This document shows, in pieces, positions 36-57,344 of a DNA stretch of 64,000 bases (position 1 is its first letter; each line of letters starts with the position of its first letter). The stretch spans positions 62,806,001-62,870,000 of the forward strand of contig OX597833.1 of assembly GCA_951406725.2 (NCBI GenBank), written 5' to 3'. A program made the translations under genes and the position numbers. The notes below the pieces were generated by a model that saw nothing but the letters and a program-made list of their open reading frames with translations, ran no database searches and had not been told where the DNA came from. This DNA is from Octopus vulgaris (lineage: Eukaryota).

Positions 36-302
36 CCATCATCATCACCATCATCATCATCATCATCATCACCATCATCATCATTATCATCATCAGCGTC
101 GTCATCATCATCATCATCATCATCATCATCACCATCATCATTACCACCACCATCATACTGCTGCTGCCACCATCGCTCTCAACATCACCCCCCCACCACT
201 ACACCCCCACCAGAATCATAATTGGCACCATAATGATGGTGCTGTAGTTGATAATGATGAAAACGCGTATATATTGATGACGATGATAATAAGGATGCTG
301 CT

Positions 303-333
<31 letters not shown>

Positions 334-355
334 ATGCTAATGATGATGATGATTA
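1..355. repeat. (CAT)n/(GAT)n trinucleotide microsatellite region
   Basis: Direct reading: catcatcat... and gatgatgat arrays with variants. Confidence 0.95.
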
Positions 356-411
356 CTGTTATTATTTAACAACTGTTCTTGGCAATTAAGAAATTTACCT
401 TGGCACTCATT

Positions 412-606
412 CATTCTCTCTCTCTCTCTCCTCTTTCCCTCTTATCCCCCCTTTTCTTAGTTTTTCTCCTTCTCTCTCTCTCTCTCTCTCTCACTCTTTC
501 TGTGTCTCTCTCTCTTACTCCCTTTCTCAGACTTTTTCTTTCTTTCTCTCTCTCTCTCTCTCTCTCTCTTTCTGTGTCTCTCTCCCTTACTCCCTTTCTC
601 AGTTTG

Positions 607-641
<35 letters not shown>

Positions 642-845
642 GTCTCCTTCTCTCTTACTCCCTTTCTCAGTTTTTCTCTTTCTCTCTGTCTCTCTCACTC
701 TCTTTCTGTATCTCCTTCTCTCTCCCTTTCAGTGTCTCCTTCTCTCTCTCTTTCTGTGTGTGTCTCTCTCTCTTTCTCTCTCCCTCTCTCACTCTTACTC
801 TTACTCTCTCTTTGCCCCCCCCTCTCTCCGTCCCACCCCTCTCCC
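412..845. repeat. (CT)n-rich low-complexity tract
   Basis: Degenerate CT dinucleotide repeats. Confidence 0.95.
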
Positions 846-1202
846 TATTTCAAAACCTATAAACCCAAAGTCATCTGTTTATCTAATGAATGGACCTGAC
901 AGCTGGAGTCAGGGGATCAGACAATTTATATAGAAATAACCCCTTAAAGCCTCCCTCTTGATTGGCTTTAGTAAAACAATCTTTGTTCAAGGGGACAGAT
1001 CCTTTAACAACTAACATGATGGATGTTATTGTATTTACATTCTGTGTGTGTGTGTGCATGTGTGCGTGTGTATGTGTGCATGTGTATGTGTGCGTGTGTA
1101 TGTGTGTATATATGCATGCATGTATGTGTGTGTGTGTGTGTGTGCGCATGTGTATGTATGCATGTATGCATGTGTGTGAGTGTGTGTGTAGGGGTTTATT
1201 AT

Positions 1203-1935
1203 CCTTTACTTGTTTTAGTCATTGGATTACAGCCATGCTGGAGCACTGCCTTGCAGGGTTTTGTTGAATAAATCAACCCCAGTATGTTTTCCCTTTAAAA
1301 TCAGGTCCTTATTCTATCAGTCTTTTTGGCTGAACTGCTAAGTTATGGGAATGTGAACAAACTAACATAAGTTATCGAATAGTAGTGGGGGACAAACACA
1401 AAGACACACACACAGATGCGCACACACACACACAGATGCACACACACACACACACACACAGACACACACACACACACACACAGAGGCACACACACACACA
1501 GAGGCACACACACACACAGAGGCACACACACACAGGCACACACACACACAGAGGCACACACACACGCACACAGAAGCACAGACACGCACACAGAGGCACA
1601 CACACGCACACAGAGGCTCACACACACGCACACAGAAGCACAGACACGCACACAGAGGCACACACACGCACACAGAGGCACACACACACACAGAGGCACA
1701 CACACACACACACAGAGGCACACACACACACAGAGACACACACACAGAGGCACACACACACACACACACACAGGCACTCACACACACAGAGGCACTCACA
1801 CAGACACATGCATGATGGGCTTCTACACAGTTTCTGTCCATGAAATTCACTCACGAGGCATTCATCACATCAACCCAGAGCTATAGAAGATGGCGCTTGC
1901 CCAAGTTGCCACGCTATGGAACTCAACCAAAAGCC
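1203..1935 (-). mobile_element. Degraded SINE family A copy whose internal microsatellite has expanded into a (CACACACAGAGG)-type minisatellite (about 1395-1808)
   Basis: Flanks match family A tail (cagccatgctggagcac) and core (cttgcccaag) on either side of the array. Confidence 0.75.
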
Positions 1936-2044
1936 ATGTGTGTGTGTGTGTGTGTTTATATGTCACAAGCGTGGCTATGTTAAGCAGCTCCCTCCCTAAC
2001 TACTTGACCCTGGATTGAGTCCCACTGTGTGGCACCTTGGGCAC

Positions 2045-2370
2045 CCCGGGACTTATTCTTTGTAAGCCCAGTACTTATTCTATCGGTCTCTTTTGCCGAA
2101 CTGCTAAGTGACGGGGACATAAACACACCAGCATCGGTTGTCAAGCAATGCTAGGAGGACAAACACAGACACACAAACATACACACACATATATACATAC
2201 ATATATACGACGGGCTTCTTTCAGTTTCCGTCTACCAAATCCACTGACAAGGCTTTGGTCGGCCCGAGGCTATAGTAGAAGACACTTGCTCAAGGTGCCA
2301 CACAGTGGGACTGAACCCGGAACCATGTGGTTGGTAAACAAGCTACTTACCACACAGCCACTCCTGCGCC
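2045..2370 (-). mobile_element. SINE family A (tRNA-derived head, CORE-like segment), 3'-truncated
   Basis: Near-identical reverse complement of 7873-8268. Confidence 0.9.
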
Positions 2371-2939
2371 TTGTGTGTAATTTTGGTAAACAGAAACTGA
2401 AAGAATCTTACAAAAGTAGTGTCAATATTCGTAAAGAATTTTCTTACCAAAAATAATTGTCCCGTTTGATTTGGTCTATCACCTTGGTGAGTTCCTATCC
2501 TCTGTCCACCCTTGGGTATCGTTGGGAGTGTCCACCCTTGGGTATCATTGGGAGTGTCCACTCTCAGGTAAGTATTCAGACCATTTGTGCAATCTGACCA
2601 TGGTTCAGTACCTTGATCTCTGAACCCTTCTGAATCAGCCCTTCAGTTGAGGTTTCTTCTTACCTTTACTCATATCCCCTTATCACAGGCTTCCAGAATG
2701 TTCCCTTCCTTCTTAGACTAAGCCTTGAAAAATATATAAAAAGAAATAAAAATAAAGTTTTGTAAATTTTTATTGTTGCTTTTTTTTTTTTTAAATGTTT
2801 CTTCATCCAGATTTTTCTACCGAATCATTGGTGCTTCTCTTCCAACATTGAGAATGGAAATAAAATATATTCCTCACTTTTGGTTGTTTCTGTCTTCTTA
2901 AGCATTTAACTTTTTTAGTATTCCGATCACCCTGTCAAA

Positions 2940-3270
2940 CCATCATCATCATCATTATCATTTAATGTCTGCTTTCCATGCTGGCATGGGTTGGATGGTT
3001 TGACAGGAGCTGGCTAGGAAGAAGGCTGCACCATGCTTCGCTGTCTGTTTTCGTATGGTGTTTACAGTTGGATGCCTTTCCTAACACCAACCACCCAGCA
3101 GGGTGGACAGAGTACTTTTTACATGGCACCAGCAAAGGTGAGGTCAGTTTTGGCAGGGTTTTCACTGCTGGATGCCCTTCCAAATGCCAACCACTTTACA
3201 TTGTGGACTGGATGCATTTTATGTGGCACCAGCACTGGCAGGGTCACCAAGTAACTTGCAAAACAAAGAC
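2940..3270 (-). mobile_element. Interspersed repeat with two internal copies of ggatgcc(c/t)ttcc.aa.gccaaccac, ending in a (ATG)n tail; probably SINE or RTE-related
   Basis: Internal duplication at about 3070 and 3170; abuts (CAT)n; family assignment is recollection only. Confidence 0.45.
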
Positions 3271-5202
3271 CCTTTGTGAGGGGAGAAAGGGCATTGAAGG
3301 AAATGATCTTGTGCCGAATGATGAAAGGTTAGAGTGTGACAGAGAGATATAAATGGAGTGTCTTGCTGTAGAGGAAGTACAGGGTTACCTGATGAGAGAG
3401 AGAGCAAAAGAGAGAGAAAAAGAAAGAGAGAATGGCATATATAATGTTTATTTGTTCACATTGTTTACAATTAATGCATAATTCTTTTTGTAGCTTCAAG
3501 ATTTCGACGTGATTCTATATTTTTAGGAGAACACTGTCAGGTAGGTACGAGAGGTCAGATCCGGCCAGGTTGAATGTAAGACAAGTGGAATATTTGTGCT
3601 GTAGCGAAGTGCTGCTCCGTGGTTTTAAAAACTTCTTTTCCAGGTTATTTCTCATGCTTTCAACGAATGTGACATCGAAATCATGCGTAAACGGCTTCTT
3701 TCCCTGGAAAAGGAGATTTGACTGATATTTCTTGCACGTCCTGCTACCACGTAGCAGCTATTTCGGATCCTTTATCGCAACTAACTGTTACGTGCTAGAA
3801 ATAGGAGCCAAATCTTTGGAGGTGAGATACATTGAATGCACTCGAAAAAAACTTATAGAAAAAAGTTATTTCACACCAAGGTTACGAACGGGTCTATTAC
3901 GAAATATTTACCGTATTTTTAAAGTCATTTTTATTTTAAAATATTTTTTAACTATGCCAAAAGAAATTTTTGTAATGCTATTCACTTGAAAATAATTTTA
4001 AAAAAACATAAAAATATTGTCTATTTAAAGAAAGCTAAAACATAAAGAACTTACTGAAAAAAAAACAACTTACATTTTTGAAATCACATTCACTTAGAAA
4101 TATTTCTAAATGATTAAAATATTGGGTTTAACAAAAGTGAAAATAGAAGCATTTGCTGTAAAAAGCAAATCGTATTCTTTCGTTGACAGGTCACTGTATC
4201 TAATCGAAAGGTAAGAGTTTCTTCTCTTTTAGGGTTAAGTTATTCTCGGAATATTTTCCCATTACGCACCGTTTTGGGTATTTATAGTTCGAAAACCCCT
4301 AATATCTCAACAACCACTTGTCCGATTTACGCGAAACTTGTTTTTGTTCTGTTCGTATTCACATTTCAGAGGAAACTTAATTCATAGTATTTTGCCATAT
4401 GTTTCAGTTTGGCTGAGTAACATTGCAAGCAAGCAAGCAATATTCAAGCTCACTTTTAATGTATTATAGATATTATCAGGAATTGTATGAAAAAAAAAAC
4501 CCTGTTAAAATGTTTTGTGTATTGCAGAAGTATAACTAATTTGCTGCACATAAACTTCAACAATAAAATCTTATACGGACCCCCAAAGGTCATGTGGCCC
4601 CCAGTCGAGAACCGTTGCTATAGTGTTACTCTGCCTACGCCTGTACTTTGAAAGACCTTTGCCAGTTAATAAAAATGTTATATTCGCTTTTGCATTACTT
4701 TAGGGACATCCCACGTCTATGTGTATATGTATATATATATATGTGTGTTTGAGTATATATCCATAATATACGTATATATACTCGTGTATATATATATATG
4801 TATGTATGTATACACATATATACACACATATATACTTACACATACGCTTACATATGTAATTTGTTCACCCACGTAGACCACACATTTATGCTATACATTC
4901 CTTCACATTGGTAATTGAAATAAGATCTTTCTGCCGTTGAGAAAATACGAAACATAAGAATTTGGTACTAAATGTTTGGTGCCAAAGGTCAAACTATAAT
5001 GGAAATATAAATGGTTTAACATCGCCATTTAAAGAGATTAAATTAATGTTTTTTTTCTGTCTTTTTCTAAACACTGTAATAATATTTTATTGTCGTCTTA
5101 ACAAAACTACTCGTGTATATAAACATAGATATATATAGACAGAGAGGTTTGTGGGAGGTAGAGAGGGAACGATACACAAATAGTAATATATATATTTATA
5201 TG

Positions 5203-13207: not shown

Positions 13208-13620
13208 TATTTCTTTACTACCCACAAGGGGCTACACACAGAGGGGACAAACAAGGACAGACAAACGGATTAAGTCGATTATATCGATCCCAATGCGTAA
13301 CTGGTACTTATTTAATTGACCCCGAAAGGTTGAAAGGCAAAATCGACCTCGGCGGAATTTGAACTCAGAACGTAGCGGCAGACGAAAGACCTATTTCTTT
13401 ACTACCCACAAGGAGCTAAACACAGAGGGGACAAACAAGGACAGACAAATGGATTAAGTCGATTATATCGATCCCAATGCGTAACTGGTACTTATTTAAT
13501 CGACCCCGAAAGGATGAAAGGCAAAGTCGACCTCGGCGGAATTTGAACTCAGAACGTAACGGCAGACGAAATACCGCTATGCATTTCGCCCATGCGTGCT
13601 AACGATTCTCCAAGCTCGCC
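13208..13620 (-). mobile_element. SINE family B dimer (long + short unit)
   Basis: Same unit junction as in the 16473 array. Confidence 0.9.
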
Positions 13621-16472: not shown

Positions 16473-17885
16473 AGGCAGCTAGCTGGCAAGAATCGTTAGC
16501 ACGCCGGGCGAAATGCTTAGCGGTATTTCGTCTGCCGTTACGTTCTGAGTTCAAATTCCGCCGAGGTCGATTTTGCCTTTCATCCCTTCGGGGTCAATTA
16601 AATAAGTACCAGTTACGCACTGGGGTCGATATAATCGACTTAATCCGTTTGTCTGTCCTTATTTGTCCTCTCTGTGTTTAGCCCCTTGTGGGTAGTAAAG
16701 AAATAGGTATTTCGTCTGCCGTTATGTTCTGAGTTCAAGTTCCGCCGAGGTCGACTTTGCCTTCCATCCTTTTGGGGTCGACTAAATAAGTACCAGTTAC
16801 ACACTGGGGTCAATGTAATCGACTGTTTGTCTGTCCTTGTTTGTCCCCTCTATGTTCAGCCCTTGTAAGCAATAAAGAAATAAGAATCGTTAGCACGCCG
16901 GGCAAAATGCTTAGCAGAATTTTGTACGTCTTTGCGTTCTGAGTTCAAATTCCGCCGAGGTCGACTTTGCCTTTCATCCTTTCGGGGTCGATTAAATAAG
17001 TACCAGTTACGCACTGGTGTCGATATAATCGACTTAATCCGCTTGTCTGTCTTTGTTTGTCCTCTCTGTGTTTAGCCCCTTGTGGGTAATAAAGAAACAG
17101 GTATTTCGTCTGCCGTTATTCTGAGTTCAAATTCTGCCGAGGTCGACTTTGCCTTTCATCCATTCGGATCGATTAAATAAGTACCAGTTACGCACCGGGG
17201 TCGAATAATCGACTTGATCCCTTTGTCTATCCTTGTTTGTCCCCTCTATGTTCAGCCCTTGTGGGCTATAAAGAAATAAGAAACGTTAGCACGCCGGGCG
17301 AAATGCTTAGCGGTATTTCCTCTGCCGCTACGTTCTGAGTTCAAATTCCGCCGCGTTCGACTTTGCCTTTCATCCTTTTGGGGTCGATTAAATAAGTACC
17401 AGTTACGCACTGGGGTCGATATAATCGACTTAATCCGCTTGTCTGTCTTTGTTTGTCCTCTCTGTGTTTAGCCCCGTGTGAGTAATAAAGAAACAGGTAT
17501 TTTGTCTGCCGTTATTCTGAGTTCAAATTCTGCCGAGTTCGACTTTGCCTTTCATCCTTTTGGGGTCGATAAATTAAGTACCAGTTACGCACTGGGGTCA
17601 ATGTAATCGACTTGATTCCTTTGTCTGTCCTTGTTTGTCACCTCTATGTTCAGCCCCCTGTGGGCAATAAAGAAATAAGAATCGTTAGCACGCCGGGCGA
17701 AATGCTTAGCGGTATTTCGTCTGCCGTTACGTTCTGAGTTCAAATTCCACCGAGTTCGACTTTGCCTTTCATCCTTTCAGGGTCGATAAATTCAGTACCG
17801 GTTGCATACTGGTGTCGATCTAATCGACTGGCTCCCTCCCACAAAATTTCTGGCCTTGTGCCTAGAGTAGAAAAGAATATTATTA
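16473..17885 (+). mobile_element. Tandem array of 7 SINE family B units, alternating long and short; last unit has an alternative tail ending in (ATT)n
   Basis: Unit starts at about 16473, 16706, 16883, 17100, 17280, 17496, 17679. Confidence 0.92.
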
Positions 17886-28426: not shown

Positions 28427-28692
<266 letters not shown>

Positions 28693-28911
28693 GACTGACG
28701 GATGTGATGTCGTTTCGGCTCCGAAGGTAATCATTTATTTTGACTATTTAAAAGTGTATATTGACAAACATTTTTTGCTTAAAAGTTGTACAACAACATC
28801 CACTGTAAACCTTTGATAAATATCGACACAAAATTTTGCCCCTTGTGGGCAAAATTTAAAAGAAAAATTCTCATAGCCTTCGTGGTTTCATTTAGCCATT
28901 TTATTTCCAAA

Positions 28912-30675
28912 ATGGCCACTGACCACCACGAGGCTGAGTTGCAAGTCAAGCGTGACGGAGAAACAGAAAAACAGGATGCTCTGTTAGCATACGCCGAACC
29001 TGACAACTCCACCACCACCAACAGCAACAAATACAAAACAAAGGTCGCAAGGCCAAGCACCGTCAACACCATCAGTGAGTCCACCACCACCACCAACACC
29101 ATGGCAGAATCTGCTACTAAAACTGCTATCCCTACTAAAGATATTGCCACCAATAACAACACCAACATCACCATCACCGCCACCAAAGACCGTGCCGTCA
29201 ATGCTACAAATACTACCAACACCACAGCCGTCACCAAGAACGACAATAACAACAACAACAACGACGACAACAACAACTCCCTTCAACCACTGCTCACTCC
29301 ATCACCAACAAGTGAAAAAATAACGACGACAAGCAAACGAAATGTCGAATTTTGCCCTAGTGCAGGACTAAAGTACGCAGGCAATTTTCCACCCCTTCCT
29401 ACTTGCACGATCGAACCTAACACACCAATTTTACAAACTGCAGCCAACAACAACATCACCACAAGCAACAACAATAACAAAACAACAACAAATTTCGCTG
29501 AGGCGATTAAAGAAAAAAAAACAACAATATACTTTACGGCTCAACAATTACAGGACACGAACATCAAAATAACAGAATCAGAAGGTATCGTAAAAATTAA
29601 CATACCAGAAGATATTTTGGAAAATGAAAAAAGACGAACAATCATTTATAAAATAGTTAACAAAAAAACAAAAATCCCAGAGAAGGCCAACACAGGCAAA
29701 ATAGAGAAGTGCCTGAAACCCATCTGGGATCACAAAGAATATGTAACCTGGTGGAACAAATTTGCCCACATACAAGTCGTTTTCTACACCGAAGAGTTAG
29801 CTAGACATTTCTCAACGCTAACTCTTCACTCAGATGAACTCCAACTTACACCAAGCTATCGGGGACAGAAAGTGACTAAGATCACTCTAAACAATGTCCC
29901 CAAAATAGCCAATAGTCTATGGCTTGTAAAGGCTTTATGCATAAAAATGGCGAATTATACTATTTTGGAAACCACAGTCACAGAGCATAAAAACTGGGTG
30001 GGAAAGAAAATAGAATTTCTTCTACATATACATCATGAAGATATAAAAAAAATACCCACCCAGATATGTGTATCAGACGACCACAAGTTATATGTGGTCG
30101 TCGATGGCAGAAGACCACGTTGCTACATATGCGGCAGTGAGCAACATCTCAAAAAAGACTGCAAATCTGCCGCAAGAAAACAACAGCAGCCGGAAACAAA
30201 AACAAATAAACAAGGTCTACTACCCACACCACTTTTTGCAGGAACAAACCTCACCAAACAAACAACCACACCAACTGCAGCACCAAGAACAGAAGCAGCA
30301 TCACCAACAACAACAACCAAGAATATACCAACTCCCAAACCAAGGACATCTGCCAAAAAGACACCCAGCATAAATGAAGAAACAATTACAACTCCAAATC
30401 CCCACAAAATTGAGACCCTAAACAACACAACAATACCCACAATCACTCAAACACAAAATACCCAAACCCCACATCCAAAACCGCATACACCACAACCAAA
30501 CGCTCACCAACCAACACCAACAACAAAACCAACACAGTCGACAATAGACCCCAATACTTTCCCTCTTCCAGACTCCGATTCGTCTGATCTGTCATTAGAC
30601 GAAGAAGACACGGAAGATTGGCAAATAGCCACAGGGGGGAGAAGAAAAAGGGGAAAAAAAGAAAAGAAAAAATAA
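28912..30675 (+). CDS. Tx1-type ORF1 (gag-like nucleic-acid-binding protein), 587 aa from the first ATG
   Basis: AAAATGG start (MATDHH...), CCHC knuckle CYICGSEQHLKKDC, T/N/P-rich low-complexity flanks. Confidence 0.85.
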   Translation: MATDHHEAELQVKRDGETEKQDALLAYAEPDNSTTTNSNKYKTKVARPSTVNTISESTTTTNTMAESATKTAIPTKDIATNNNTNITITATKDRAVNATNTTNTTAVTKNDNNNNNNDDNNNSLQPLLTPSPTSEKITTTSKRNVEFCPSAGLKYAGNFPPLPTCTIEPNTPILQTAANNNITTSNNNNKTTTNFAEAIKEKKTTIYFTAQQLQDTNIKITESEGIVKINIPEDILENEKRRTIIYKIVNKKTKIPEKANTGKIEKCLKPIWDHKEYVTWWNKFAHIQVVFYTEELARHFSTLTLHSDELQLTPSYRGQKVTKITLNNVPKIANSLWLVKALCIKMANYTILETTVTEHKNWVGKKIEFLLHIHHEDIKKIPTQICVSDDHKLYVVVDGRRPRCYICGSEQHLKKDCKSAARKQQQPETKTNKQGLLPTPLFAGTNLTKQTTTPTAAPRTEAASPTTTTKNIPTPKPRTSAKKTPSINEETITTPNPHKIETLNNTTIPTITQTQNTQTPHPKPHTPQPNAHQPTPTTKPTQSTIDPNTFPLPDSDSSDLSLDEEDTEDWQIATGGRRKRGKKEKKK

Positions 30676-31052
30676 CAAACAAAGCGGGAAGATACACCAC
30701 TCCCGAAACAAAAACATCCACAGAAAACACACACATCAACACAAACACACCATCATCAAACCCCCCAAAAATGTTGACAGCCATAAACACAAACAACCAC
30801 GACCTAATGGAACACATTAGGTCAAACACTAACATTACTGAAAACGACATAAAAACAAGTAACCACCCACACACAACACCACCACAACACATTAAAATAA
30901 TACACGTGACACAGAACACATACAGCACCCTGAAATCTCTTTACCCTGATGCAGTAGGGAGATTTCAAAAGTACTCATCAAAAAAACTGTATAAAAGCCT
31001 CATAGAAGAAGACCGTGAGGTGAAAGACAAAGAACTTTCGAAAAACAAGTAA
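30618..31052 (+). CDS. Probable C-terminal continuation of ORF1 in the -1 frame
   Basis: Same A/C-rich composition as ORF1, overlaps the ORF1 end at an A-rich run, stops 42 nt before the ORF2 ATG. Confidence 0.55.
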   Translation: MANSHRGEKKKGKKRKEKITNKAGRYTTPETKTSTENTHINTNTPSSNPPKMLTAINTNNHDLMEHIRSNTNITENDIKTSNHPHTTPPQHIKIIHVTQNTYSTLKSLYPDAVGRFQKYSSKKLYKSLIEEDREVKDKELSKNK

Positions 31053-31094
31053 CCTTTTCTCTCTCCTTTTCCTTTTTTGCACTTTTATCGGAAC

Positions 31095-34000
31095 ATGCTC
31101 AGAATAGGTAGTATAAATGTACGTGGCTTGGGGTCGCCTTGGAAACAAGGCTACCTGTTAAATGACATCAAGTCACTAAATCTGAATATCATAGCCATCA
31201 GTGAGACCAGACTCCACAGCTTGCGGGCACTCCAGCACATTTTCGGTACACATTTCAACATTTATTTTTCTCCGTGTCTACCGAGAATGGGCGGAGGTGG
31301 CACCGCGGTGCTTATCCGGAAGAGTCTGGATCTCAAAGTAAGAGCAAATTTCCTAGACCCGGAGGGTAGGCTGGTCGTTTTGGATGTCGATGGCAGCAAT
31401 GAGTGTGCTTTTCGACTGATAGCAGTTTATGCTCCGTCCTTAACAGGCCGACCAGATTTCTTTCGACGTCTAGAGTCTTTCATGGGAACGTCTCGTCCTT
31501 TACTTTTAGTGGGGGATTGGAATGCCACCCTGGACACGCATCTAGACTACGTGGGCAGAGATAGCAATAGAAGGGGATGCAAATGCCTCAAAGACCTGCT
31601 CAGACGTTTCCAACTGTCTGACAGGTACCGACTGGACCACCCGAATGTGCCAATGTGGACATGGAGTAACCGCATCGGGTCGTCCAGATCATACTTAGAT
31701 AGAGTATTCTGTAGGACAATAGATAAAAATAGTGTAGGTTGTCCACAATTTCATATAGTCAGTTACACAGACCACAAGTTTGTGACTTGTACACTTGACT
31801 TAGATAAGACACATAGGCAGGGTCCTGGTTACTGGAAACTGAACGCGTCTTTTACAGCACGACAGGTTTACAGGGACCGGATCAGCACATTAGTTAAGAG
31901 AGCTTTGACGGGTACCATCATCAACAACAGATGGTGGTATGCCCTAAAAAAAGCGATTAAAGCAGAATCAGTCAGATACAGTAGAGCCCTAGCATTAGAC
32001 CGAAATAGAGTAGAGGGAGAATTAGTTAAGGTTTTAGAAGAGGCACTTAGAACTGGCATCGCGTCCAACGTACTGGCGGCGAGATTGGCCCTCGACCAAC
32101 ACCTCAACGCCAAACACGAGGGATGCGTTGTCAGAGCTAGGATGCGTGCTCTGAGGAACGAAGGAGTTGGAGCCGCCCAAGAGGCCCGAGTGGTGGAGAC
32201 GCAACGAGGCAACAGAGCCACCATCAAGTCTCTTATAGATGAACAGGGGCGCGAATTACTCGAGCCCAAAAGGATGTGTGGGGTTTTTCAACAACACTTC
32301 ACCCAACTGTTTGGGACAAGTGGTGAGTCAGAAAGCAGAGTGGACTTTAGTGCCTACCTGCATGCCTTGCCACGACTCTCAGCAAGGGAGGTGGAGTCTT
32401 GTGAAAAGCCTATCACAGCTGCGGACGTACAGGATGCGATGGTAGGCTGCGCGAGAGACAAGTCACCAGGCTTGGATGGTCTGCCCTACGAATTTTATTT
32501 TCATATGCCAGACTTGTTTGGAGGCGTCTTGGCAGCTGTCTACTGCAACTGGCAGCAGAACGGGAGTATTCCTGCTTTTGTAAAGCGAGGAGCAGTGGCA
32601 CTGATCAAGAAAGACCCAAACAAGGGGGACGTCATAGATAATTTCAGGCCCATCACTCTGCTCAACGCAGATTTGAAAATTTTGGCCAAGGTGTTAGCCG
32701 AGAGGTTGGCGCTTGTCATCAAGAAACTAATCGACAAGGCGCAAACATGCGCCGTGCCGGGTAGAAGTATTCATGACAACCTCCATCTGATGCGCTACAT
32801 CATAGACAGGGTAGTTAAAAATCCTGGCATGGGTGGGGCGCTGATCAATTTGGATCAATCAAAAGCCTTCGATAGGGTAGACCATCACTACTTGGAGGCT
32901 GTCCTCAAAGCGGCTGGTTTCGGTCCAGTTTTCCGCGGTTGGATCGCTGCCTTATACAGCGGCATCCGCTCAGTAGTTCGCGTAAATGGTCATCTATCCA
33001 GACCTTTTAACATCATGCGTTCGGTTCGTCAGGGATGCCCCCTCTCATCGCTGCTGTATGTACTGACTCTTGAGCCACTACTGCGGAAACTGGCGACGCT
33101 GAGGGGCATCCCACGAGAGCTGGGATGCGGGAGGAGCGTGTCTGCATACGCGGATGACGTCACCGTCATAGTGTCGAGCTACGAGCACATCGAGCTGGTC
33201 GGCGAGACACTGAAAGAATACGAAGCGGTAACGGGAGCAAAAATTAACCGGGAAAAGTCAGTGGGCTTGCGGCTCGGCACCTGGAGAAGCAAGCCCATGC
33301 CGTCCAACAGCGTCTCCATCGTGGGACGCTGGACGGACGGACCGGTTAAATTGCTCGGGGTCTGGTTCGGTCCGGACCTCCAAATGGAGAAGAACTGGGG
33401 CGAGATAACGACTAGGGTGGCTACTCTCACCCAGAAATGGACTGAGAGAAAGCTATCCCTAAAAGGTCGGGCGGAGGTGGCGAACGCGTACATCGCATCC
33501 GTCATCGAGTACCGTCTGACCGTCGTGCCTTGTCCCGACCCTACCATCACCAAACTGGAACGCATACTCTTCCGCTTCTTGTGGAAGGGAAACGTTCCGA
33601 TGGTTAGGCGATCCATTTGCTGCCAACACCCGCTAAATGGAGGGCTGGGCATGCCGTGGTTGATGATGCGCAGACATGCGCTGAGACTGCGACATCTCCG
33701 GCGCTTCATAGACAACGGTGAACAGGGGTGGTCGCCTTTTGTGCGGCGCGCTTTCCCGCAGCTCGTCTCCTTGGACGAACTACAGTCATGGATCAAGCAG
33801 AGACCGAGGCTAGGCGAATGGCACCGTGAGTGTCGCGTTGCTCTCAAGCAACTCTGCCGTCCGGGATCGAACTTGTGCGACTCCATCACAACAAAGGCAT
33901 TCTATAGAGGATTAGTGGAGGGGAGGTGCGACGACGAACTCGGGCAGAGTCTGGGCGTCGACGAGGAACACCTGACCCGCCTGTTCAGGACAACTTTCGG

Positions 34001-34532
34001 GCCGGGACCTATGAACAATCACCAAAGATCCCTGGCCTGGCAGTGCTATCGAGAAGCATTACCTGTTCGGGATAAGCTCTACAGACACGGTTCCAGACAC
34101 ACTGGACCGACTTGCCCGAGATGCGGTCAGAGCGACGAAACCGTTCTGCACGCACTCGTGCAATGTCCAACCATTTCCGACCTGTGGGCTTATGCCGAAC
34201 GGCTGCTGTCACGTGTGGGACGAATCCGCCTATCGGCCGAGTCTATCGTGAGAATTGCTCCGCCCCCTTCCCTCAACCGGGAAGGCAAGGCAGTTTTCAT
34301 CGTACTGGTGGCCATGGTGAAAGAATGTGTGTGGTGGACTCGAGCGAAAGGATTAGAGACAAACACTTACCTCTCTGGCCATTCGCTCATCAACTTTTTC
34401 AAGTACCACTTGAAAAGGAAGGTGAGAATGGAGAGGGAAGTTTTGTCTCGCGAAAGATTCAATAAAAGATGGGTGAATGTTGCAAAGATGGTGCGTGCTA
34501 GTAACGAAACCATTTTGAGCATGATCCTGTAG
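31095..34532 (+). CDS. ORF2: AP-endonuclease + reverse transcriptase + C-terminal zinc finger, 1145 aa from ATG
   Basis: APE motifs SINVRG, SETR, VYAP, GDWN, YLDRV, TDH; RT motifs KSPGLDG, FRPITLLN.D.KILAK, LDQSKAFDRV, RQGCPLS, YADD; CPRC...H...C; uninterrupted. Confidence 0.96.
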   Translation: MLRIGSINVRGLGSPWKQGYLLNDIKSLNLNIIAISETRLHSLRALQHIFGTHFNIYFSPCLPRMGGGGTAVLIRKSLDLKVRANFLDPEGRLVVLDVDGSNECAFRLIAVYAPSLTGRPDFFRRLESFMGTSRPLLLVGDWNATLDTHLDYVGRDSNRRGCKCLKDLLRRFQLSDRYRLDHPNVPMWTWSNRIGSSRSYLDRVFCRTIDKNSVGCPQFHIVSYTDHKFVTCTLDLDKTHRQGPGYWKLNASFTARQVYRDRISTLVKRALTGTIINNRWWYALKKAIKAESVRYSRALALDRNRVEGELVKVLEEALRTGIASNVLAARLALDQHLNAKHEGCVVRARMRALRNEGVGAAQEARVVETQRGNRATIKSLIDEQGRELLEPKRMCGVFQQHFTQLFGTSGESESRVDFSAYLHALPRLSAREVESCEKPITAADVQDAMVGCARDKSPGLDGLPYEFYFHMPDLFGGVLAAVYCNWQQNGSIPAFVKRGAVALIKKDPNKGDVIDNFRPITLLNADLKILAKVLAERLALVIKKLIDKAQTCAVPGRSIHDNLHLMRYIIDRVVKNPGMGGALINLDQSKAFDRVDHHYLEAVLKAAGFGPVFRGWIAALYSGIRSVVRVNGHLSRPFNIMRSVRQGCPLSSLLYVLTLEPLLRKLATLRGIPRELGCGRSVSAYADDVTVIVSSYEHIELVGETLKEYEAVTGAKINREKSVGLRLGTWRSKPMPSNSVSIVGRWTDGPVKLLGVWFGPDLQMEKNWGEITTRVATLTQKWTERKLSLKGRAEVANAYIASVIEYRLTVVPCPDPTITKLERILFRFLWKGNVPMVRRSICCQHPLNGGLGMPWLMMRRHALRLRHLRRFIDNGEQGWSPFVRRAFPQLVSLDELQSWIKQRPRLGEWHRECRVALKQLCRPGSNLCDSITTKAFYRGLVEGRCDDELGQSLGVDEEHLTRLFRTTFGPGPMNNHQRSLAWQCYREALPVRDKLYRHGSRHTGPTCPRCGQSDETVLHALVQCPTISDLWAYAERLLSRVGRIRLSAESIVRIAPPPSLNREGKAVFIVLVAMVKECVWWTRAKGLETNTYLSGHSLINFFKYHLKRKVRMEREVLSRERFNKRWVNVAKMVRASNETILSMIL

Positions 34533-34845
34533 ATCGTAAAAAAGAAAGAAAGGAAAAAAAAAAGAGAGCATTTTTGACCTCATGTGTTTTATTTCCTCCC
34601 TGACTGGGGTTCCCGTGGTCTTTTCTGTAGGCTTTTCTTCCCACGGATGAACCCAATCTTGTTATATCAATGTTTACACCATTATTTCTGTGATACACGA
34701 TTTTCTTTTTTTCCTTTTTTTCCTCCTCTCGATCCCTTTTGATCGCAATCTTACATTTTTATTTTTTTCCACCCTCGAAAAGAAAAGCTCTGCATTTGTA
34801 ATTGTCTCCTCTGTATTCAGCCCTGTGTGGCTAATAAAAGAAAGT

Positions 34846-35065
<220 letters not shown>

Positions 35066-57309: not shown

Positions 57310-57344
57310 GATAGATAGATATGTTTCTTTATTAGCCACACAGT
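57310..57344 (-). mobile_element. Minute 3'-end remnant of the Tx1 family joined to (TATC)n
   Basis: Minus strand ctgtgtggctaataaagaaacatatctatctatc versus ctgtgtggctaataaaagaaagttatctatctatc at 34823-34857. Confidence 0.7.

Follow-up and report, generated by a model that had tools for sequence, protein, structure and literature searches.

The 64,000-nt stretch of Octopus vulgaris DNA that we analysed, hereafter the window, contains on its forward strand a 6154-nt (6.15 kb) LINE of the L1 group and apparently of Tx1 type, at 28692-34845. Because the T at 28691 continues the phase of the TATC repeat lying 5' of it, we take 28692 as the first sure base of the element. The features on which the analysis depends are as follows.

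28442-28690, plus strand: 5' flanking (TATC)n array, interrupted, 249 nt
28522-28577, plus strand: left copy of an exact 56-nt repeat, interrupted twice, a candidate target-site duplication lying 114 nt upstream of the element
28692-28911, plus strand: 5' UTR, 220 nt, with one A fewer at 28862 than in most family contigs
28912-30675, plus strand: N-terminal part of ORF1, 587 aa from the ATG at 28912, stopping early at an A/G-rich run
30588-31052, plus strand: continuation of ORF1 in a different frame, following a frameshift in the window copy
31095-34532, plus strand: ORF2 from ATG to stop, 1145 aa, a single open frame
34533-34845, plus strand: 3' UTR, 313 nt, with AATAAA at 34833-34838 and no poly(A)
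34846-35040, plus strand: 3' flanking (TATC)n array, 195 nt, starting with the right 56-nt copy
34846-34901, plus strand: right copy of the exact 56-nt repeat, with which the 3' array opens
57310-57343, minus strand: second copy of the 3'-terminal motif of the element, 16 nt exact and about 22 nt alike, then one base and (TATC)3

A preliminary description of this DNA had proposed a near-intact Tx1-type LINE with an uninterrupted ORF2. For ORF2 this is correct: the frame is open throughout and encodes an APE endonuclease (aa 6-222), a reverse transcriptase (RT) with YADD at 685 and a C-terminal zinc knuckle, recognised in Pfam as Exo_endo_phos, RVT_1 and zf-RVT, and the endonuclease and RT catalytic motifs are present when the protein is aligned to human L1 ORF2p. 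For ORF1 it is not, since the frameshift there had gone unremarked. The break may be a real mutation or an assembly slip in the A/G run; contigs from DNA sequencing runs skip this A/G repeat, and a contig from run X13 spanning 30420-30768 has 347 letters for 349 positions, a difference equal to the offset between both ORF1 frames. An intact ORF1 from a sister lineage, described below, has 665 aa and reaches up to ORF2; the two ORF1s are homologous (E about 1e-13). ORF1 of the window copy has a CCHC zinc knuckle at aa 403-419, matching zf-CCHC at an E value of 0.0023 that falls under the Pfam curated cut-off, and Pfam found no Transposase_22 in it. A search for ORF1 relatives passed none of 496 candidates, and no other ORF1 or ORF2 remnants were found in the 64-kb window. 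At the 3' end AATAAA is followed by 7 nt and then directly by the TATC array from 34846, poly(A) being absent just as had been observed; no stable 3' stem-loop was found in the element (z 0.67).

By its APE, RT and zinc knuckle the element is a non-LTR retrotransposon of the L1 group (L1/Tx1), with an RT closer to that of L1 than to that of R2. The best PDB match of ORF2 was human L1 ORF2p (E 5e-61 over aa 4-856), R2 proteins following at 3e-20 or weaker. The nearest named protein comes from Argonauta hians (65%, ORF2), and cuttlefish proteins are next at 38-48%. A quick RT tree had 76 rows, drawn from 59 chosen proteins, 21 loci and the window, with rows covering under 220 aa dropped. In it the element, P0001 and the Argonauta protein formed one group (support 99); its sister group comprised 26 rows including a cuttlefish protein, and all 29 stood together with support 100. 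The rows of this tree carry no labelled Tx1 families, and the Tx1 assignment, which draws on the zf-CCHC anatomy of ORF1 and the affinity to the L1 group, is suggestive and not diagnostic. ORF1s with zf-CCHC are called consistent with Tx1 in PMC5203782.

The exact 3'-end pattern had no match in genome_contigs, in viral_contigs or in any of 102 loci, nor did these 102 loci contain a (TATC)3 run; neither genome_contigs nor viral_contigs yielded close C-terminal relatives, and a search with the full ORF2 found none in viral_contigs. A metagenome scan returned 56 loci of distant relatives. Further eukaryotic LINE ORF2s (27-32%; L095-L098, L100 and L101) lie in other bacterial bins and are likely to represent host DNA.

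Both ends of the element join TATC of identical orientation, as the preliminary description stated. The outer edges of the two flanking arrays are degenerate, like those of other arrays in the window. Shuffling the parts (tokens) of the left array gave a probability of about 0.013 for the exact 56-nt repeat that the flanks share, and seven other array regions in the window match it over at most 15 nt. Because this repeat is interrupted, it points to an array that pre-dated the insertion. From the sequence, the 56-nt repeat is a candidate target-site duplication, in which case the 5' join would have gained a further 114 nt of repeat, perhaps from the flank of the donor; that it is long, and that 114 nt of other repeat lie between it and the 5' end, count against our main explanation. 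The intervening segment itself (28578-28691) is TATC interrupted in a different manner and is a possible 5'-transduced donor flank.

Perfect TATC/GATA runs make up 1348 of the 64,000 bases of the window (2.1%), and about 1.0% of strand-positions show a TATC-like 15-mer in a given orientation. The earlier caution that a single insertion is merely suggestive was thus well placed: landing within an array is unlikely by chance yet not decisive. Rfam returned no match in the window or in 8 loci, and therefore no RNA-gene target is indicated. Elsewhere in the window, at 13208-13575 and 16488-17829, are tandem copies of 182-184-nt and 396-nt units resembling the abundant octopus SINE.

Other copies of the family were sampled by aligning contigs of four sequencing runs, X1, X12 and X5 (DNA) and X13 (RNA by guess), to a reference consisting of the element with 15-16 flank bases per end. 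Six of the 12 indel rows listed (10 further rows exist) fall at 28691-28694, and the indels there have depths of 4800 and 1032 in X1, of 1054, 843, 562, 252 and 212 in X12 and of 312 in X5; diverged low-copy pieces have depths of 35-215, against which most of the 212-4800 at the junction forms stand well above. In the rebuilt junctions the repeat breaks off in phase T, TA or TAT, with slight variation in the 5' start of the element; the letters were reconstructed from the indels, with the number of TATC bases matched per record deduced in the same way. Six other 5' junction forms cross the TATC boundary, making at least seven with that of the window, and one form is common to all three DNA runs. 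Records reaching past the 15-16 flank bases at either end numbered 62 of 25940, 53 of 21021 and 28 of 13696 in these runs; they are distinct from pure-repeat contigs, because none in the DNA runs fits two places. Depth at 28691 relative to that at 29695 in ORF1 was 9575/4569, 3197/8374 and 367/1536, so that 5'-junction depth amounted to more than 100%, 38% and 24% of ORF1 depth against a TATC background of about 1%, although depth is not a copy count. Kojima's rule calls a family target-specific when one sequence type occurs in more than 20% of flanks. As a caveat on depth, deep shared junctions could also come from a handful of master copies carrying a TATC leader. At 34845 no poly(A) loose end occurred among the 24 loose ends listed (3080 others exist), which is weak evidence.

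A young TATC-associated LINE family is therefore well supported. It probably targets TATC, and a preference of the family for TATC is likely, with good though not overwhelming confidence. The idea of a GATA-specific family thus survives in part: TATC repeatedly adjoins the 5' ends of full-length copies. The APE domain may be responsible for this, with RNA read-through pairing as a strong rival or partner, and the family may still be mobile.

The youth of the family agrees with the recent insertion that had been proposed, ORF2 being intact and near-identical copies many. Twenty of the 24 runs listed, representing 10 studies and three organisms, contain 0.69-0.78 of the sampled element words, as expected for a family about 1% diverged. 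Eight X13 pieces listed differ from the window copy at 22 positions in 3739 nt, and X5 contigs of the ORF1 region reach depths of 1243-1752 with 0-2 differences, X5 diverged pieces having 35-71. These figures suggest tens of near-identical full-length copies, depth again not giving the true copy number. Contig depth increases toward the 3' half of the element, as expected from truncated and older copies. In X13 two records cross an end of the element and one contig runs 28 letters beyond 34845, a weak hint of RNA read-through past the element end.

The second 3'-terminal motif reproduces the terminal 16-mer exactly (57328-57343, minus strand), after which come an A-rich stretch like that of the element and (TATC)3; exact 16-mers are expected by chance at 5e-5, and 1.0% of sites would be so followed by a TATC repeat. 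It has just three TATC units, and no TATC directly adjoins its 5' side, the nearest array being 202 nt off. It could be a short relic or a related element. Because its 5' side does not adjoin TATC and its upstream homology is unclear, the motif links the 3' end to TATC and cannot separate target from tail. The surrounding block is CA/TC-rich and minisatellite-like, and the motif within it could also be a SINE tail or garbled assembly. We rejected the reading of 57310-57343 as a 225-nt truncated copy, since its local alignment was equalled by 337 of 500 shuffles and an anchored alignment by 43-93 of 1000.

A sister lineage was found in G001, a bin labelled uncultured Arenicella with microsatellite-rich animal-type DNA that appears to contaminate a reference bacterial genome. 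Contigs C3-C19 of this bin (loci L057-L094, L099 and L102-L116) carry long head-to-tail trains of intact LINEs; the bin has 86 ORF2 matches at 41-43% identity, most of them in such trains of about 6.5-kb units. Among 47 unit ends read, from overlapping loci, none has poly(A) and none has TATC, and it follows from the latter that the TATC target is not ancestral to the clade. The trains have their own spacers of 12-30 nt, which match the host flank in G001: in all four trains whose 3' edge was read, the flank agrees with the inter-unit spacer at 12-17 of 18 nt, whereas pairs across trains agree at 0-6 of 18 nt in five of six cases, two trains of one subfamily sharing 13. One train has its spacer at both outer edges. 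The trains thus apparently arose by re-insertion at the lineage's own sites, and subfamilies with close RTs use different spacers. Matching spacers and the absence of poly(A) therefore mark a clade that is target-selective and tail-less, with targets differing among subfamilies, and re-insertion of a tail-less sister at its own sites suggests a part in target choice for RNA that has read through into the flank.

LINEs insert by target-primed reverse transcription. For the window element this would take place in existing (TATC)n/(GATA)n arrays: ORF2p would nick the GATA strand, while the RNA, instead of being cut and tailed at AATAAA, would run on into the downstream repeat, where its UAUC end could pair with the GATA primer released by the nick. 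A second, staggered nick would then duplicate part of the array, and the 5' end would join imprecisely, in varying repeat phases. Because poly(A) is absent, RNA reading into the flank is the simplest partner for the primer. Pairing of the RNA end with the target has been reported for SART1Bm and R1Bm (PMC7265360), and specificity is said to gain from co-transcription with the target (PMC4494074). Target choice would most likely reflect a moderate endonuclease preference reinforced by RNA-DNA pairing. On balance the evidence tips slightly towards a recently amplified autonomous LINE family that prefers existing (TATC)n/(GATA)n through both means.

The mechanism originally put forward, in which the endonuclease alone sets TATC targeting, as in Tx1L, and the RNA end has no role, seems unlikely to us without being far-fetched. 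Target choice is said to be set mainly by the endonuclease (PMC4494074), the Tx1L endonuclease nicks almost only its own target (PMC1950540), and the endonuclease of the window element is more diverged from the sister clade (35-42% identity) than the RT (52-55%). Against it, the lack of poly(A) here and in the sister lineage means that the RNA end needs another way of priming, and sister subfamilies with close RTs nevertheless differ in their spacers. Furthermore, the endonuclease hairpin loop linked to selectivity (ORF2 aa 190-198) is 9 residues long, like that of L1, compared with 11 in Tx1L and TRAS1, although length alone proves little. The Argonauta protein also has 9 residues in this loop, and 15 of 16 sister-clade proteins checked have 11-13.

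A more far-reaching version of RNA guidance, to which we assign a comparably low probability, would have a cephalopod L1/Tx1 lineage abandon the poly(A) tail, with the flank that the RNA reads into setting the next target. Once in TATC, a family would be locked onto TATC arrays genome-wide, whereas sisters in unique DNA would re-insert at their own site, giving trains in which up to about ten 6.5-kb units stand head to tail, every train having a spacer of its own. If so, target specificity would pass on through the RNA, and a change of tail could reprogram it.

Somewhat less probable again is that TATC travels in the RNA at both ends, transcription starting in and running out into the array of a master copy whose progeny bring arrays to unrelated sites. 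The additional 114 nt of repeat that separate the left 56-mer from the element would suit this reading, as would the short (TATC)3 of the second 3' motif within CA/TC-rich sequence, and repeat tails are common in octopus RTE elements (PMC9115989). The 28-letter extension in X13 is also a weak hint in its favour; depth at the 5' junction is zero in that run, which speaks against a TATC leader and is no proof. Separate integrations account better for seven junction forms in different phases than does the copying of a single leader, and the flanks, 249 and 195 nt long, have outer edges as degenerate as other arrays in the window. TATC carried in the element RNA, which the preliminary description had set against its own proposal, is accordingly weakened and keeps a small probability. 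RTE-like element-encoded tails leave the repeat only 3' with random 5' flanks, unlike the TATC found here also at the 5' end and at six other full-length junction forms. That there is no preference at all, by chance landing, duplication of one locus or passive accumulation in a microsatellite-rich genome (as proposed for Drosophila Waldo-A/B; PMC3812793), is very improbable even with TATC/GATA runs at 2.1% of the window, given six further junction forms at depths far above low-copy pieces, a second 3' end beside TATC within the same 64 kb, and the single junction that duplication would preserve.

With its youth, intact ORF2 and simple target, the family lends itself to separating cleanly the control exerted by the endonuclease from that of the RNA tail. 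Octopus repeat annotation is affected too, as are GATA markers, since insertions of this kind would disrupt them.

Among Tx1-type elements, Mutsu targets 5S rRNA genes and Dewa tRNA arrays. Tx1L of Xenopus, Keno in U2 snRNA genes and Tx1-1_ACar in telomere repeats likewise prefer particular targets (PMC4494074; PMC1950540; PMC10088271), all different from that of the window element, and Tx1L differs also in the 11-residue loop noted above. SART1Bm and R1Bm set a precedent in that the 3' end of their RNA pairs with nicked target DNA (PMC7265360); unlike the window element they belong to the R1 clade, and SART1Bm, which inserts into telomeric repeats, carries a poly(A) tail. In Octopus vulgaris, 80 'L1-Tx1' families have been described, 13 of them recently active, with 421 insertions (PMC13282606). 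They are probably of the same broad group as our element; that report discusses no target preference, its main text having no match for 'target' and its supplement none for TATC or GATA. A TATC/GATA-specific Tx1 family was not described in the open-licence papers that our searches listed, although Repbase or Fig. 3 and the supplements of PMC4494074 may list one. The closest parallels are Kibi in (TC)n and Koshi in (TTC)n of teleosts, and the crocodilian Tx1-1_Crp, Tx1-5_Crp, Tx1-6_Crp, Tx1-1_Gav and Tx1-2/3/5/8_AMi in (TTCC)n or (TTTC)n (PMC4494074; PMC3812793). Likened by target and anatomy alone, these are, as is the window element, APE-type L1-group LINEs with two ORFs in T/C-rich microsatellites; the window element differs in its TATC unit and its cephalopod host. 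It works like Kibi and Koshi, yet by target is neither, being flanked by (TATC)n and not by (TC)n or (TTC)n. The targeting mechanism of microsatellite-seeking LINEs has been called not well understood (PMC3812793), and to the short list of such APE LINEs the present family adds the repeat unit TATC/GATA and the cephalopods as a host group.
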